Below are positions 22,811 through 36,052 of a stretch of 64,000 nt of DNA, one piece after another. The notes below the pieces were generated by a model, which saw only the letters and a list, made by a program, of their open reading frames with translations, was not told where the DNA came from and ran no database searches. Within the stretch, counting starts at the first letter, position 1. Every line of letters begins with the position of its first letter. Location: the IMG/VR virus record IMGVR_UViG_2703718833_000007, positions 6,191 to 70,190 of that record; one strand, written 5' to 3'. A program made the translations under genes and the position numbers. This DNA comes from a virus (Duplodnaviria > Heunggongvirae > Uroviricota > Caudoviricetes).

Positions 22811-22838
22811 TTTTCGCGTAGCAACGCGTAAACATGTA
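22811..22838 (+). promoter_or_regulatory. Conserved 28-bp near-palindromic element, copy 1 (TTTTCGCGTAGCAACGCGTAAACATGTA)
   Basis: 25/28 identical to element at 36025-36052; inverted arms TTTTCGCG / CGCGTAAA. Confidence 0.35.
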
Positions 22839-22854
22839 TTCAGGAGTAAACATT

Positions 22855-24225
22855 ATGCCATCAAATTTAGATTTGGCGGTTAATGCTGCCTTGTCACAAC
22901 GCCAGGCGGCCTATGCCCGCTATACCGCAGCACACCCATTCACGATGGGGATAGATGCCAAACGCGATGCTGCGTGGAGTGAATACGGATTCAAAGAAGA
23001 GATCACGTATGAAGACCTGTACAAACTGTACAGACGCGGTGGTATCGCTCACGGTGCTGTAGAGAAGATTGTTACTACGTGCTGGCGCACCATGCCGATG
23101 CTGATAGAAGGCACGGAAGACGAGAAAGCAGAAAAGGAAACACCGTGGGAAAGGGAAATCAAAAAGCAATTCGATAACAGATTTTGGCGTGTTATTGCCG
23201 AATGTGATCGCCGCCGCCTCATTGGTCGTTACGCTGGCCTGTTGATTCATGCCAGAGATAACCAGCCGTGGGAAAAGCCAGTCACAAAAGGCGTAGGTAT
23301 TGCCAAATTTACCCCGGTATGGGCTGGTGCTCTTACGCCGAAGGAGTTCGAAGAAGACCCGAACAGTGAAAATTATGGCCTGCCTACATGGTGGGAATAC
23401 AAAGAACGCATTAACAGTAAGACCATTGCCAGAAGAATCCACCCTGATCGCATATTCATCTTTGGCGACTATTCCGATGATGCCATCGCTTTCCTTGAAC
23501 CTTCCTATAACGCCTTTGTGTCACTGGAGAAGGTGGAAGGTGGTAGCGGTGAATCATTCCTGAAAAACGCCGCCCGTCAGCTTGCTATCTCATTCGATAA
23601 GGAAATTGATTTCCGTTCCCTGGCCGCTACATACGATTGCGACGTTACAGAGTTACGCGAAAGATTCAATGAGGCTGCGGCTGAAATGAATAAGGGTAAC
23701 GATGTGATGATGGCATTACAAGGGGCGACAGTAAGCCCGCTGGTGACTGCCGTATCTGATCCGTCAGCAACCTATGACGTCAACCTGCAAACCGCCGCCG
23801 CTGGCATTGATATTCCAACCCGCATCCTGGTTGGGAACCAGCAGGGCGAACGCGCATCAACCGAAGATCTGCGTTACTTCAACAGCCGCTGTATGACCCG
23901 CAGGGAAGAGATTGGCGGTGAGCTTGAGGATTTATTCAGCAAGATGGCAGATCTGCGCCTTATCAGTATGCCAGTAGATATATCAGTGATATGGGACGAC
24001 CTGAACGCCATGACCAAAGCCGAACTACTGGAAGCTGCACACAAGATGGCGCAAATCAATCAGGCTTGCCTTGCTACTGGTGAAGAAATATTTAGCGGTG
24101 ATGAGATCCGCGAGGCTGCCGGATACGATGGCCCTGCCAGTGTAGTAGAAATGGAAGAGGAAAACGATGATGAAGGTGAAGAAGATAATCAGGCGAATAC
24201 CTCCAGCCGCGATAATGCCATCTAA
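22855..24225 (+). CDS. Portal protein
   Basis: Track ORF 22834-24225 trimmed to ATG with AGGAG SD; size and position after large terminase; acidic C-terminus. Confidence 0.8.
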   Translation: MPSNLDLAVNAALSQRQAAYARYTAAHPFTMGIDAKRDAAWSEYGFKEEITYEDLYKLYRRGGIAHGAVEKIVTTCWRTMPMLIEGTEDEKAEKETPWEREIKKQFDNRFWRVIAECDRRRLIGRYAGLLIHARDNQPWEKPVTKGVGIAKFTPVWAGALTPKEFEEDPNSENYGLPTWWEYKERINSKTIARRIHPDRIFIFGDYSDDAIAFLEPSYNAFVSLEKVEGGSGESFLKNAARQLAISFDKEIDFRSLAATYDCDVTELRERFNEAAAEMNKGNDVMMALQGATVSPLVTAVSDPSATYDVNLQTAAAGIDIPTRILVGNQQGERASTEDLRYFNSRCMTRREEIGGELEDLFSKMADLRLISMPVDISVIWDDLNAMTKAELLEAAHKMAQINQACLATGEEIFSGDEIREAAGYDGPASVVEMEEENDDEGEEDNQANTSSRDNAI

Positions 24226-25111
24226 CACCGAAGACCCGACCATGACAGGGAAGTTAAGGTCTGGTGCTATCAAGCGTTTTAAATCCTGCCTGAAGAAAGT
24301 TGCGGATCCGTATATTGCCATACTGGACAGGATGCAATATAGCCTTGCTGTTAATAAAAAATACACCTTTCAGATCTACATTGACGAATTACATGACTTG
24401 CTGGAAGACGCCAGCGACATGATTGATGAGATATTCGAGTTAACAGACCCGGAAAACTTCTGGTTCTGGCAGGAATACGTGAAAGTGGCATATCAGCGCG
24501 GCACTTCCCAGGAATACGCTAACCTCGCTAACCAGTCAGTCACATATTCCAGGGCTTACCCTGAAGTGTCGGCGGTATTAACCAGTCAGACCTATCGAAC
24601 GCGCCTTGCTCTGGTGCGTACCCGCGTATTTGAAGAGATGCGCGGGCTGACAGCACAGATCAAGAAGGATATGGCACGCCGATTAACTGAAGGCATGGCC
24701 CGTGGTTTAAATCCACTTGAAATAGCGCGCACATTGCAGCAGGAAACGCAATTACCGCTATACCGGTGCAAACGTATTGCCCGCACTGAAATATGCACAG
24801 CGTTGCGCACAGCGCGTATGGATGAGGCTGAAGCGGCGACGGAAGAGCTTAATCTGCGCACTATGCAGATGCACATTTCGGCATTGTCGCCGACTACCAG
24901 GTTGTCACACGCACAGCGGCACGGGAAAACTTACACCATAGAAGAGCAGCGCGAATGGTGGAGCAGATCCCCAAATTCAATTAACTGCAAATGTAGCACT
25001 ATTACCGTGATGGTCGATGAATCTGGTAACATATTAAACAAACGAATATTAGAGCGGGCGCAAGAAAATTATAAGGTTGCGCACGCTAAATATGGCGAAG
25101 ATTGGGAGTGA
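24167..25111 (+). CDS. Head morphogenesis protein (SPP1 gp7 / Mu F-like minor head protein)
   Basis: Track ORF 314 aa; position after portal; family assigned from overall pattern. Confidence 0.6.
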   Translation: MMKVKKIIRRIPPAAIMPSNTEDPTMTGKLRSGAIKRFKSCLKKVADPYIAILDRMQYSLAVNKKYTFQIYIDELHDLLEDASDMIDEIFELTDPENFWFWQEYVKVAYQRGTSQEYANLANQSVTYSRAYPEVSAVLTSQTYRTRLALVRTRVFEEMRGLTAQIKKDMARRLTEGMARGLNPLEIARTLQQETQLPLYRCKRIARTEICTALRTARMDEAEAATEELNLRTMQMHISALSPTTRLSHAQRHGKTYTIEEQREWWSRSPNSINCKCSTITVMVDESGNILNKRILERAQENYKVAHAKYGEDWE

Positions 25112-25607
25112 TATCGTGAATGAAGTGATTAATTGGCATGATTATTTCACGTATAAATCAGGCCATATTTACTGGAAAATATCACCAACTAACGGCGTTC
25201 ATATTGGCGACCATGCGGGGAATGACAGCGGGTTGGGCTACTTGCGTGTTCGTGTCAATTATAGGTTATATCTTGTTAGTAGAATCATATGGGAAATGCA
25301 CAACGGCCCGATCCCGGAAGGGTACGAGATAGACCACATTGACCATAACACACTAAATAACGATATAACGAACCTAAGGATGGTAAGTCATTACGAAAAT
25401 ACACTAAATGCGCCAATGAGAAAGGATAATAAAAGCGGTTATGTCGGTGTTATTTGGCATAAGGCGTCCCGTAAATGGATGGCGTATGTACAAGTGAATA
25501 AGAAGCGCAAACATTTAGGTTTATTTGACAGCATAGATAAGGCCGTAGCTGCCCGCCGACAGGCTGAAAAAGAGAACAATTATCACCCAAATCACGGGAG
25601 TGTTTAA
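25092..25607 (+). CDS. HNH homing endonuclease (HNH_3 + AP2-like), paralogue 3 of 4 (start uncertain: 25077, 25092 or GTG 25116)
   Basis: Track ORF 25077-25607; INWHDYF, GPIPEGYEIDHIDHN, SGYVGVIWHK...KWMAYV motifs. Confidence 0.85.
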   Translation: MAKIGSDIVNEVINWHDYFTYKSGHIYWKISPTNGVHIGDHAGNDSGLGYLRVRVNYRLYLVSRIIWEMHNGPIPEGYEIDHIDHNTLNNDITNLRMVSHYENTLNAPMRKDNKSGYVGVIWHKASRKWMAYVQVNKKRKHLGLFDSIDKAVAARRQAEKENNYHPNHGSV

Positions 25608-25608
25608 G

Positions 25609-34984: not shown

Positions 34985-35491
34985 CTATTTACCGTGATTT
35001 GGATGAAAACCGTATTTAATTTCGGATTCTTGCCTTGCCTTGATTGCATCATCTTTGCTTTTGAATACCCCTAAATGTTTTAATTTTCCGTTGATTCTGA
35101 TAACTGCGCACCATTTACGCAATCTTTCAAGCCAATAAACACCAGCACAGCCGGATTTATTATTATGGTTGCGACTTCTGTTGTGGTTATTGTCTTGGCA
35201 GGTAACTAGCCGCAAATTTTCTATATGGTTGTTTACCTTATTGTGATCGATATGATCTATTTCCATTCCTTCCGGGATTGGTCCGTTGTGCATTTCCCAT
35301 ATAATTCTATGCTCTTGGTATATCCTCCTGTTAAACCCTACATGTATATACCCACTTCGTTTATGAAGGCACCCGGCTCGCTTTCCCGCATATCTTGAAT
35401 TCCAGGTTTTGGAAACGCCATTTCTTGGCTTCCATAATATAGCGCCGTCACTGTATATAAAATAATCATTCCAGTTAATTACTTGTGACAT
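34985..35491 (-). CDS. HNH homing endonuclease (HNH_3 + AP2-like), paralogue 4 of 4, opposite strand
   Basis: Track ORF 168 aa; INWNDYFIY, GPIPEGMEIDHIDHN, SGCAGVYWLERLRKWCAVI motifs. Confidence 0.85.
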   Translation of the reverse strand: MSQVINWNDYFIYSDGAILWKPRNGVSKTWNSRYAGKRAGCLHKRSGYIHVGFNRRIYQEHRIIWEMHNGPIPEGMEIDHIDHNKVNNHIENLRLVTCQDNNHNRSRNHNNKSGCAGVYWLERLRKWCAVIRINGKLKHLGVFKSKDDAIKARQESEIKYGFHPNHGK

Positions 35492-35733
35492 CCGCGCACC
35501 CCTGACAATTCATTAAATTTGTGATGCTCGACGATTACCCATGCTTTCAAGTCCTGGCTATAAACACGCCAATCTAAATTGGCGCGGAAGGCGTAGCCGT
35601 AGCCGTCCTTTAATTTTTTGGGTGCAACATCCTTGTTTAAAAACGCGTTCAGAAGTGCTTTTGCTTTTTTGATTACGTGTCCAGGTGCGTTTTTCTGTGC
35701 TTTAAGATTTTTGTCAATCATTACCAATTTCAT
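35479..35733 (-). CDS. Hypothetical protein, possibly RelE/ParE-fold toxin-like
   Basis: Track ORF 84 aa; WRVYSQDLKAWVIVEHH loosely resembles the RelE/ParE C-terminal strand pattern; weak. Confidence 0.35.
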   Translation of the reverse strand: MKLVMIDKNLKAQKNAPGHVIKKAKALLNAFLNKDVAPKKLKDGYGYAFRANLDWRVYSQDLKAWVIVEHHKFNELSGVRGCHK

Positions 35734-35753
35734 AACTCACCCCACGCAATCCA

Positions 35754-35909
35754 TTAGTTGACCACTTTCAGGAAGAAATCACGGTATTCATCTTCTTTTG
35801 CGTTCATCATGAATTGACCGTATTTGAATGCGTCATCAAAGCCTTTTACAATCGCCACTTCCACCTGTTCGAATGCTTTGTTTAGCATTACCACTACATA
35901 GCGTTTCAT
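35754..35909 (-). CDS. Hypothetical small protein (51 aa), upstream partner of the 84-aa ORF
   Basis: Track ORF 35754-35960 trimmed to MKRYVVV with G-rich SD. Confidence 0.35.
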   Translation of the reverse strand: MKRYVVVMLNKAFEQVEVAIVKGFDDAFKYGQFMMNAKEDEYRDFFLKVVN

Positions 35910-36024
35910 GATGCCCCCCCTTTGTTGGTACTTCTTTCTCTTCTTGCTTTCTATATACATCTTGTTATGTCCTGTGTGAAGCCATTTTGTAAACTGGGTA
36001 TAATTCTTGTGACGAAGTTCTCAT

Positions 36025-36052
36025 TTTTCGCGTAGAAGCGCGTAAAGATGTA
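36025..36052 (+). promoter_or_regulatory. Conserved 28-bp near-palindromic element, copy 2 (TTTTCGCGTAGAAGCGCGTAAAGATGTA)
   Basis: 25/28 identical to copy at 22811-22838; lies between CCATTTTGTAAA/TATAAT element and gene M. Confidence 0.35.

Follow-up and report, generated by a model that had tools for sequence, protein, structure and literature searches.

A two-copy conserved element in the portal and M leaders of mEpimmI phages, a candidate leader operator

Analysis of a 64,000-nt window (the whole stretch of DNA investigated), in which an mEpimmI (mEp021-group) prophage of E. coli is present, revealed a short non-coding element in the leaders of two late structural genes, portal and the tail-tip gene M. 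Judged by its conservation, the element is very likely an undescribed, family-specific regulatory signal acting in cis. Its position, orientation, copy number and restriction to the family, together with very strong purifying selection, were established by comparison with related genomes, and its interpretation as a terminator, promoter, nut site or recombination site is excluded. Tentatively, the element may be a sequence-specific operator within the transcribed leader, acting on the translation of portal and M or on the fate of their mRNA.

The mEpimmI phages, a group defined not long ago, are reportedly prevalent in the human gut; of their regulation, the repressor and the early N-like system alone have so far been described (PMC11893012). 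The literature contains nothing on the element, and the words “hairpin”, “palindrome” and “intergenic” do not occur in the family paper (PMC11893012).

Position and conservation of the two copies

The two 28-mers of the original prediction, TTTTCGCGTAGCAACGCGTAAACATGTA (22811-22838) and TTTTCGCGTAGAAGCGCGTAAAGATGTA (36025-36052), were found at these coordinates, both on the + strand and 25/28 identical. A repeat finder lengthened the pair to 34 nt with 30/34 identical positions (family D17): the portal-leader copy (22809..22842, + strand), ATTTTTCGCGTAGCAACGCGTAAACATGTATTCA, is located between the terL stop (22776) and the portal Shine-Dalgarno (SD) sequence, and the M-leader copy (36023..36056, + strand), ATTTTTCGCGTAGAAGCGCGTAAAGATGTATGCA, lies 5' of M. 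The degenerate 28-mer had zero matches in 100 dinucleotide-preserving shuffles. A weight matrix built from the family copies scored the two copies at 62-67 bits; the search for further copies proposed with the original prediction was run over the whole window, and neither this matrix (none above 8 bits on either strand) nor a mismatch search yielded a third one.

The predicted location upstream of portal and gene M is borne out by the ribosome-binding regions of both genes. The region of portal (22842..22857, + strand) consists of the SD sequence AGGAG (22842-22846) and the ATG at 22855-22857, and that of M (36061..36082, + strand) of a conserved GTAAC (36061-36065), the SD sequence AGGGGG (36070-36075) and the ATG at 36080-36082. 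Relative to the ATG, the portal copy spans -46 to -13, abutting the SD sequence, and the M copy -57 to -24, so that each site falls within or adjoins the ribosome footprint of its cistron, as expected of a translational operator. A third GTAAAC motif is present at 22846-22851 in the portal SD region, where GAGTAAACAT repeats the GCGTAAACAT of the element at 9/10 positions. The portal start at 22855 is the one annotated in mEp013 and mEp515, and the resulting N-terminus, MPSNL, aligns with the portal starts of phages ES2 and RAH1. The start given in the list of open reading frames (22834) is an in-frame ATG within the element that is not conserved in the M copies; the mEp021 record also places the portal start codon inside the element. 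Long untranslated stretches precede the TMP and L genes as well, yet neither carries the element.

Conservation in relatives, on which the original prediction had been made to depend, was found throughout the family. The window and about 70 related genomes each contain exactly two copies, always sense-oriented, one in the portal leader and one in the M leader, and each ending 0-13 nt before the SD sequence. Diversity within the core is 0.003 for the portal copy and 0.010 for the M copy, compared with 0.17-0.25 in the adjacent spacer and, within the genes, 0.29 (portal) and 0.32 (M) at the third and 0.05-0.06 at the first two codon positions; silent sites thus vary 30-100 times more than the core. 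The portal copy is identical in nearly all family genomes, even where the portal protein is only 84-87% identical, and the invariant block there runs from the element through the SD sequence to the start codon, while the spacer just upstream varies. The M copy is retained 5' of M in all family members with at least 74% identity in M; in one genome a homing-endonuclease gene separates the leader from M, and the element remains at the head of the unit.

Outside the family the element is missing, both from other phages and from distant relatives sharing terL/portal or M, among them ES2 and RAH1 (related in terL/portal) and about 50 lambda-like M loci. In species-representative bacterial genomes a portal search gave no relatives, and a pattern search gave 28 unrelated matches with the element absent, the chance expectation being about 70 (estimated from 17 specified bases and 596 Gb). 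A metagenome scan with a stem-free pattern returned only 8 family matches, amid many AT-rich chance matches.

The presence of the element throughout the family and a conservation far exceeding that of third codon positions and spacer show it to be a non-coding signal under selection; constraint on the sequence itself implies that a trans-acting factor of some kind recognises it. The original suggestion of a protein-binding site or an RNA structure thus holds as far as a selected signal is concerned, and the evidence does not separate its two halves.

Stem-loop, direct repeat and natural variants

The inverted arms described in the original prediction are present and imperfect, TTTTCGCG facing the reverse complement TTTACGCG with a conserved T/T mismatch. 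The description is also incomplete, since a direct repeat of CGTA cores with a period of 10 nt accounts equally well for the invariant bases. As read from the sequence, the portal core (22815..22831, + strand) comprises CGCGTAG (22815-22821), a variable CAA and CGCGTAA (22825-22831), and the M core (36029..36045, + strand) comprises CGCGTAG (36029-36035), a variable AAG and CGCGTAA (36039-36045), that is CGCGTAG-N3-CGCGTAA with units 10 nt apart. Alternatively, the same bases can be drawn as a CGCG/CGCG stem with the loop UAGCAA at portal or UAGAAG at M, the latter extended by UUUUU/AAAGA pairs around a bulged U. The two CGTA cores stand 10 nt apart in all copies (YRCGTA-N4-YGCGTAAA), and the invariant bases are CGTA at positions 7-10 and GCGTAAA at 16-22, nominal loop and bulge positions included.

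The predicted fold is a GC stem of 4-5 bp with a variable loop, preceded by a U-run; for the portal copy a 5-bp stem with an AGCA loop is obtained. All natural variants are predicted to fold into a hairpin (-4.6 to -12 kcal/mol), with energies unremarkable against shuffles in long contexts (z -0.1 to -0.9). In the family alignment 93% of cells are paired, and both this percentage and the covariation score are the same as in column shuffles. Double changes occur at one pair only (two sequences), no more than in shuffles, and RNAalifold reported 0 compensatory pairs or double changes. Compared with random substitutions, the natural ones gave no better retention of the fold (p 0.05-0.45). The element has no match in Rfam 15, where FnrS and RalA are the only gathering-score matches of the window; at permissive thresholds 35900-36120 gave no match at E<=10, and 22740-22900 gave noise only. 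Judging from the pattern of conserved positions, the direct repeat matches the invariant bases no less well than the stem.

The natural variants can be read in both ways. Most single stem changes are wobble-compatible in + strand RNA (C5>U, C15>U, and A>G in outer pairs), whereas G6>A in the L337 lineage gives an A.C mismatch in the canonical stem; T4>A in L343/344 was considered as a compensatory change and rejected, as the energies give no support. The two repeats accept changes at corresponding places, C>T being found at position 1 of the unit in one repeat, the other or both, and G11 is replaced by T in two lineages (L338 and L343/344). Two types carry 1-nt deletions, one between the two cores (L121 type, in two metagenomes) and one within the T-run (L044 type). 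A hairpin loop would readily accommodate such losses, which would be harder to reconcile with a rigid DNA operator of two half-sites. If U9 pairs with R14, the loop becomes A-G-N-N, in which A and G are mostly retained and N-N is unconstrained, resembling the AGNN tetraloops cut by yeast Rnt1p; the setting of those is eukaryotic, the element has T for G11 in the two lineages mentioned, and to our knowledge no bacterial reader of AGNN loops exists.

Each of two functional modules has at its 5' border a U-run with a stem-loop directly after it. The arrangement recalls the punctuation of polycistronic T7 and T4 mRNAs and would suit a generic mRNA processing or stability signal, either an AU-rich RNase E-type site followed by a hairpin that protects the 5' end or a minimal site for RNase III, by which the late transcript would be cut into lysis/terminase, head/tail-shaft and tail-tip messages. 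Such a signal needs structure and AU-richness and not a near-invariant sequence, while the core is 30-100 times more conserved than silent sites, and the stem has just 4-5 GC pairs of unexceptional stability. A processing or stability signal is accordingly unlikely; a generic structure would have no need of constraint on its sequence.

Known site classes and their relation to the element

A terminator scan was blank at both copies and detected real intrinsic terminators at 34520 and 36635; where an intrinsic terminator would have a U-tract, the sequence following the hairpin is UAAAGAUG or UAAACAUG on the + strand and AAAAAU on the - strand. A sigma-70 promoter scan had no match at either copy on either strand, and a -10 hexamer inside the element would set the transcription start on or after the portal SD sequence. 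Minus-strand candidates (TTTACG-17-TAGAAA, and AAAAAT as -10) were rejected, their hexamers not being conserved among relatives. Near the portal copy no conserved sigma-70 promoter was found, T(-7) of both candidate -10 hexamers varying among genomes. Upstream of the M copy, by 18 nt, lies a TATAAT hexamer (35999..36004, + strand), invariant in 36 distinct aligned sequences and the later loci shown, which was not picked up by the two-hexamer scan and lacks a convincing -35. The hexamer may be the -10 of an internal promoter, in which case the element would occupy about +13 to +46 of the transcript.

This arrangement at M is a typical place for a repressor operator, and a phage or host DNA-binding protein recognising the tandem YRCGTA-N4-YGCGTA, or the imperfect palindrome, is the main alternative, somewhat less probable than the leader operator. 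Such a protein would block or modulate transcription into portal and M, as a repressor of the internal promoter in the case of M and as a roadblock in that of portal. The same positions are invariant in both 10-nt units, tolerated changes are equivalent, the 10-bp spacing would place both units on one helix face, and RNA structure is statistically unsupported. A DNA-level transcription factor would nevertheless have little to act on at portal, because no conserved promoter is present there; moreover, a 9-bp spacing variant persists, the conserved stretch at portal continues past the limits of any operator, across the SD sequence up to the ATG, the immunity-region promoters and the rest of the genome contain nothing similar, and no candidate DNA-binding protein was identified. 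A relation to the immunity operators was likewise rejected: the P_R spacer has TTTTACG..CGTATA, but no repeated operator of such kind.

Two further classes of DNA site were discarded. The CpxR box consists of two GTAAA pentamers 10 bp apart (GTAAA-N5-GTAAA). The element reads GTAG(A/C)-N5-GTAAA; position 4 of the first pentamer is G in nearly every copy and T in two lineages, never the CpxR consensus A. A CpxR box would also leave unexplained why conservation is strongest in the flanking CGCG and T-run. The activator sites of P2/186 (Ogr) and Mu (C) are also family-specific dyads or repeats upstream of head and tail gene clusters and lie 40-55 bp upstream of the transcription start, which is followed by a leader. 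The element, in contrast, is centred 31 nt from the start codon of portal and 42 nt from that of M, too near to leave room for a promoter and leader.

Site-specific recombination sites (lox/FRT/dif) were rejected on the spacers, TAGCAA and TAGAAG, which differ at 3/6 positions. A relic or recombination joint of no regulatory role (a duplicated module linker, a homing-endonuclease target or a site-specific recombination site) is very improbable. The copies do share about 50 nt, likely of common origin, their loop triplets are occasionally swapped (AAG in a portal copy, CAA in an M copy), and HNH genes are scattered through the family, one of them right after an M leader. A neutral relic would, however, decay like spacer (0.17-0.25) instead of holding at 0.003-0.01; as direct repeats flanking all head and tail-shaft genes and having different spacers, the copies would be blocked for tyrosine-recombinase exchange or would delete all head genes; and HNH genes occupy many unrelated positions, the element being intact with or without one nearby.

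A lambda-type nut site is excluded, there being no boxA (YGCTCTTTA) near either copy. BoxA was found at 3064, 10870 and 2050 (minus strand); the nearest boxA-like sequences are on the minus strand, at 22101 (one mismatch, about 700 nt from the portal copy) and at 37647 (about 1.6 kb from the M copy), thus too distant and in the wrong orientation. The boxB hairpins of the phage, which follow the boxA copies at 3064 and 10870 and the one at 2050 on the minus strand, resemble the element in having 4-5 bp GC stems and purine-rich loops of 6-7 nt starting with U, and in being located in transcribed leaders of a Nus-dependent phage. In one natural M variant (L104) the loop UGGAAG equals the hexamer opening the nutR1 loop, and terminators are found downstream of both sites (28409 and 36635). 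It is nonetheless unlikely that the head and tail-tip modules have a second tier of nut-type sites, in which the element would be a boxB-like hairpin that brings Gp17, the N-like antiterminator, or a different processivity factor to late transcripts. The nut loops (UGGAAGU, UGAAAU, UGCGAA) follow U-GNRA-N, whereas those of the element read UAG plus a variable triplet, with A in place of the critical G and a 3' half varying freely in sequence and length. Furthermore, Q-modified polymerase should already pass late terminators, and the three nut sites described for the family (nutR1, nutR2 and nutL) all belong to early operons (PMC11893012) and not to the Q-dependent late operon.

A broader possibility, itself of low probability, is that the elements are late-mRNA loading sites for an unrecognised processivity or translation factor, one candidate being the arginine-rich, N-like Gp17 on degenerate boxB hairpins that lack boxA. 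If so, they would form a third regulatory tier in a Nus-dependent, non-lambdoid family, by which, within a Q-driven operon, the head genes (from portal on) and the tail-tip genes (from M on) would be licensed for expression separately. Among known leader elements, JUMPStart/ops, which recruits RfaH, is comparable: conserved and about 35 nt long, it contains GTAG, belongs to the 5' leaders of long operons and is read once transcription is under way. The ops consensus GGCGGTAGnnTG is not matched, as CGCGTAG shares only GTAG plus one G with it, and no NusG paralogue is evident in the phage.

The candidate leader operator and its significance

The preferred explanation, a transcribed leader operator, would work as follows. 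The late mRNA would carry two GCGUA motifs 10 nt apart, foldable into a short GC stem-loop after a U-run, with a third GUAA(A/C) motif adjoining or overlapping the SD region. A sequence-specific trans-acting factor, most likely a core protein of the mEpimmI phage family, would bind the leader and set translation initiation of the first cistron downstream, and possibly also the fate of its mRNA. We infer that the element is read as RNA and that a protein is bound; any direction of effect would be equally conjectural. The unbroken invariance from element through SD to ATG at portal is the footprint of a constrained translation-initiation region. Further points in favour are the constant number and sense orientation of the copies shortly before an SD sequence, the constraint on the core, the absence of a conserved promoter at portal, the tolerated 1-nt deletions, the wobble-compatible stem changes, the hairpin predicted for every variant, and the place of the element at the head of the unit in the genome with the homing-endonuclease gene.

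Weighed against the leader operator were the lack of compensatory covariation, the substitution test, the L337 mismatch, the ordinary energies, the good fit of the invariant bases to a direct repeat, the missing partner, and TMP and L without the element. With regard to a partner, no RNA- or DNA-binding protein was identified, no candidate being conserved in all family genomes; an arginine-rich ORF of 70 aa (13785-13997), the sole additional small protein of this type, was rejected, as it is missing from mEp021, which carries the element. PHROG and Pfam searches assigned only “unknown function” to small late-region proteins, and a search for complementary phage or host sRNAs gave only chance-level 12-mers.

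Translational operators are known from T4 gene 43 and gene 32, RegA sites, the MS2 coat-protein hairpin, Mu Com-mom and the dual sites of CsrA. The logic proposed here is like that of operators coupling a high-affinity upstream site with a weaker one at the ribosome-binding site. The element shares with them (i) a leader position inside or next to the 30S footprint for a short hairpin or motif of specific sequence; (ii) a weaker related motif at the SD sequence, GAGUAAACAU versus GCGUAAACAU in the portal leader; (iii) conservation that is extreme relative to the surroundings. It differs in having no identifiable cognate RNA-binding protein, in being common to two unrelated structural genes and in a sequence similar to none of theirs.

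For the mEpimmI group, a near-invariant leader signal common to portal and M would be the first regulatory site of the late stage to be described. With 34 nt and two copies it offers a compact, testable handle with clear mutational predictions. Even if the element proves to be an ordinary operator, it is useful for annotation, because of the portal start codon set inside it in the mEp021 record. The finding opens the question of how individual structural genes may be tuned within one antiterminated operon when accessory cassettes on the reverse strand interrupt it.

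Genomic setting and distribution of the two copies

The window contains the larger part of a prophage of E. coli that belongs to the mEp021 group and is 87-94% identical, at the nucleotide level, to mEp021, mEp010/013/044/515/554 and MagusPhagus; the group has recently been described as Nus-dependent, non-lambdoid “mEpimmI” phages (PMC11893012). The window begins inside the prophage (gp13/gp14 homologues at 254-1900), and the right end of the prophage appears to lie at ~47.1 kb; the host DNA to the right is marked by the FnrS sRNA and the RalA antitoxin RNA of the Rac prophage region (48560-48677, 52987-53165). 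Tandem 108-nt (36-aa) repeats, of which there are several diverged copies, occur at 42470-43866 in the gene of the J-like tail fibre (1779 aa). The late genes are located on the + strand and are read from a lambda-like pR' (17519-17547, +; TTGTGG-17-TAAAAT), followed by a -10-like AACAAT (17555-17560) at about +1 to +6, the lambda counterpart of which is AACGAT, and by the terminator tR' (about 17576-17600) directly 5' of the holin gene. This region (17519-17600) fits a lambda-type Q, whose gene (12311-13033, Pfam PF03589) lies upstream of pR'.

Both 28-mers of the original prediction have been identified on the + strand (22811-22838 and 36025-36052), with 25/28 identical positions, and a repeat finder lengthened them to a 34-nt pair with 30/34 identity (22809-22842 and 36023-36056). 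The degenerate 28-mer had no match in 100 dinucleotide-preserving shuffles, and the search for further copies, by relaxed searches and a weight matrix made from related copies, revealed no third one in the 64-kb window, whichever strand was considered; hence the pair is genuine and no product of chance. Their placement before the portal gene and gene M was confirmed: copy 1 is situated in the 78-nt gap between the terL stop (22776) and the portal gene (SD 22842-22846, ATG 22855), copy 2 is found 24 nt 5' of the M ATG (36080), inside a 168-nt divergent spacer. On the far side of this spacer begins a reverse-strand accessory cassette formed from a 51-aa ORF, a ParE-like protein and an HNH endonuclease.

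The exact-core scan of IMG/VR revealed 89 loci in about 45 contigs, mostly of about 54 kb, and almost all contigs with matches have two, one 5' of portal and one 5' of M. Scans anchored on the flanks or on the M and portal proteins, in which the core is not forced by the query, recovered the element at the same sites. Within the GenBank phage collection, matches were limited to seven mEpimmI-group phages, at two places each. Conservation in relatives, which had been suggested as a check, is thus observed at the same two sites across the related family genomes. The M junction was found in only 28 of 5,426 complete E. coli genomes, and species-representative bacterial genomes gave 28 unrelated matches against about 70 expected by chance according to our own estimate. 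The element is absent from the more distant ES2 and RAH1, which have terL and portal in common, and from other more distant phages with M at about 70% identity (L127-L175). It is annotated in none of the deposited records and is not mentioned in the paper on the family (PMC11893012).

Sequence constraint and predicted structure

Within the 20-nt core, pairwise diversity amounts to 0.010 upstream of M and 0.003 upstream of portal. For comparison, third codon positions have values of 0.32 (M) and 0.29 (portal) and the first and second positions 0.06 (M) and 0.05 (portal); the directly adjoining spacer has 0.17-0.25. In genomes with portal proteins 84-87% identical to that of the window, the sequence is identical base for base all the way from the element to the start codon. 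Such constraint on the sequence, beyond mere structure, points to recognition by a specific trans-acting factor.

All copies possess the invariant blocks CGTA (positions 7-10 of the element) and GCGTAAA (16-22), flanked by a T-run on the 5' side and N-A/G-T-N-T-A on the 3' side. The natural variants include G6>A (L337), A10>G (L104), G11>T (L338 and L343/344) and C5>T, which several lineages have; C15>T occurs in at least two, and L343/344 combine it with C5>T. In the L343/344 lineage (GCA_946056325.1) the M copy reads TGCGTAT-CAG-TGCGTAA. Positions 12-14 form a freely varying triplet (CAA, AAG, AAT, AGG, CTA, CGA, AAA), which has lost 1 nt in L121; another 1-nt deletion affects the T-run of L044. 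Loop variants are now and then exchanged between the two copies, and a match between the copies of one genome is not required. This variation fits equally well a direct repeat YRCGTA-N4-YGCGTA with 10-nt spacing and a 4-bp stem CGCG/CGCG, in which the two terminal pairs tolerate G.U, the closing pair is U9-R14, the 3' half of the loop is free, and U/A pairs around a bulged U lengthen the stem. The inverted arms described originally can be folded in this way, but they are not the only arrangement to which the variants conform.

The hairpin is not supported statistically. In an alignment of 41 sequences 93% of cells pair, a value equalled by column shuffles, and a double change occurs at only one pair, no more than shuffles give; RNAalifold recovers the hairpin with zero compensatory pairs. 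The long-context folding energies are ordinary (z -0.1 to -0.9), and natural multi-substitution variants retain the fold no better than random substitutions (p 0.05-0.45). In favour of the hairpin, most of the single changes in the stem still allow wobble pairing in the sense RNA, the length changes are located in the loop and the T-run, and all variants still fold (-4.6 to -12 kcal/mol); in one lineage (L337) G6>A comes with flank changes adding 7.4 kcal/mol to the outer stem. The proposed RNA structure is possible; the covariation tests speak neither for nor against it. A generic processing or stability hairpin, against which the sequence-level constraint speaks, is considered improbable. 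No Rfam family matches, and an intrinsic terminator was rejected for want of a U-tract following the hairpin on either strand.

A boxB-like antitermination site is considered about as improbable. A nut site was rejected: the element lies without a nearby boxA, and the real boxB loops of this phage have the form U-GNRA-N, where the element has A for the critical G and a variable loop. Least probable of all is a recombination relic. A lox/dif-type site was rejected, since the spacers of the two copies disagree at 3/6 positions and the copies are direct repeats flanking essential genes.

Promoters and leaders around the copies

An internal promoter is suggested by a TATAAT (35999-36004) that is invariant upstream of the M copy; the element would then lie at about +13 to +46. 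The remaining conserved blocks of the M spacer form the minus-strand promoter of the reverse cassette (35952-35991, -; TACAAAATGGC-TTCACA-17-TATATA), a near copy of the early promoter P_R (2984-3022, +; TACAAAATGGA-TTGACT-17-TATATT). Another near copy heads the reverse cassette before TMP (32087-32126, -; …TTCACT-17-TATAAA), and a weaker one is located just 5' of nutR2 (10777-10810, +). With P_R near copies at their heads, the late-region accessory cassettes may be early-type, possibly repressor-controlled units. The element is absent from TMP and L, which are also located 3' of reverse cassettes.

At the portal copy no comparably conserved promoter was found, the T(-7) of both candidate -10s (TAAAAT and CACAAT) varying among genomes. 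The feature common to both copies is therefore the sense-strand leader position just 5' of the ribosome-binding site. The main rival reading, a DNA operator of tandem CGTA cores, neatly accounts for variation at equivalent positions and suits the M copy's site downstream of TATAAT, but would have little to act on at portal; it is considered somewhat less likely than a leader operator. Neither a sigma-70 promoter, for which hexamer pairs are lacking and any start would be located at or beyond the portal SD, nor a P2/Mu-type activator site, for which the start codons are too close, was retained.

In the portal leader GAGTAAACAT, overlapping the SD-ATG spacer, repeats the element's GCGTAAACAT at 9/10 positions, and the M leader has a conserved GTAAC at the equivalent place. 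In predicted folding of 35960-36115, read-through RNA pairs the TATAAT region with the M SD/AUG (AUG unpaired probability 0.04); RNA from about 36011 leaves the start site open (0.63). These models hint that M may be translated mainly from the internal-promoter transcript. TGTAACT occurs at 17568, 28402 and 36060 (+), directly 5' of two late-operon terminator hairpins and in the M leader, its total count being at chance level; the terminators at 17575, 28409 and 34520 form one repeat family (CCCCGG..CCGGGG, then a T-run).

Insertions are found at both junctions. In L080 (IMGVR_UViG_2695420423_000006) a gene for a 157-aa HNH-AP2 homing endonuclease lies between the M leader and M, about 50-530 nt past the element; M follows with a new SD, and the element still heads the unit. 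Further HNH genes occur in the window (34985-35491) and at other positions in mEp021 and mEp515. In eight haplotypes (L004, L009, L017, L018, L033, L066, L071, L078) 68 nt of AT-rich sequence, including two small palindromes (TTGATTATTATCAA, CTTCGAAAAATTTTCGAAG), are inserted between the terL stop and TAAAATCTG, the downstream element being unchanged. The mEp021 record (MH706966.1, 28919-28960) is unlike all relatives just past the portal SD (ACATTATATTGCGTTTATTAGAT vs ACATTATGCCATCnAATTTAGA), and its portal start is annotated at an ATG within the element; this deviation probably reflects faulty assembly of the SOLiD-based sequence.

Candidate function in late-gene control

We tentatively favour a transcribed leader operator, because the site adjoins the ribosome-binding site within the leader, conservation continues through the SD to the ATG, the portal copy is without a promoter, spacing changes are tolerated and both copies are sense-oriented. 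A sequence-specific factor would bind the two GCGUA motifs or the hairpin and, acting via the related motif at the SD, would govern the translation of portal and M and possibly also their stability. A protein-binding site, as in the original prediction, would fit the sequence constraint; a partner protein was not identified, the small late-region proteins being without annotated function. One candidate was a basic ORF of 70 aa (13785-13997, +; pI 10.3), whose arginine-rich motif, RRNKRQRRKVAR, resembles RNA-binding peptides of the N type. It was rejected because only some genomes of the family possess it (L033 as a tandem pair), mEp021 not being among them. The window encodes no complementary sRNA.

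The element has not been described before; it is specific to the family and belongs to a familiar general kind of cis element, either a leader operator or an operator site. A specialist will hardly be surprised by it. It is unusually clean, with two near-invariant copies of 34 nt, and it represents a direct experimental entry to late-gene control in a group of phages that have so far been little studied and are reported to be frequent in the human gut.
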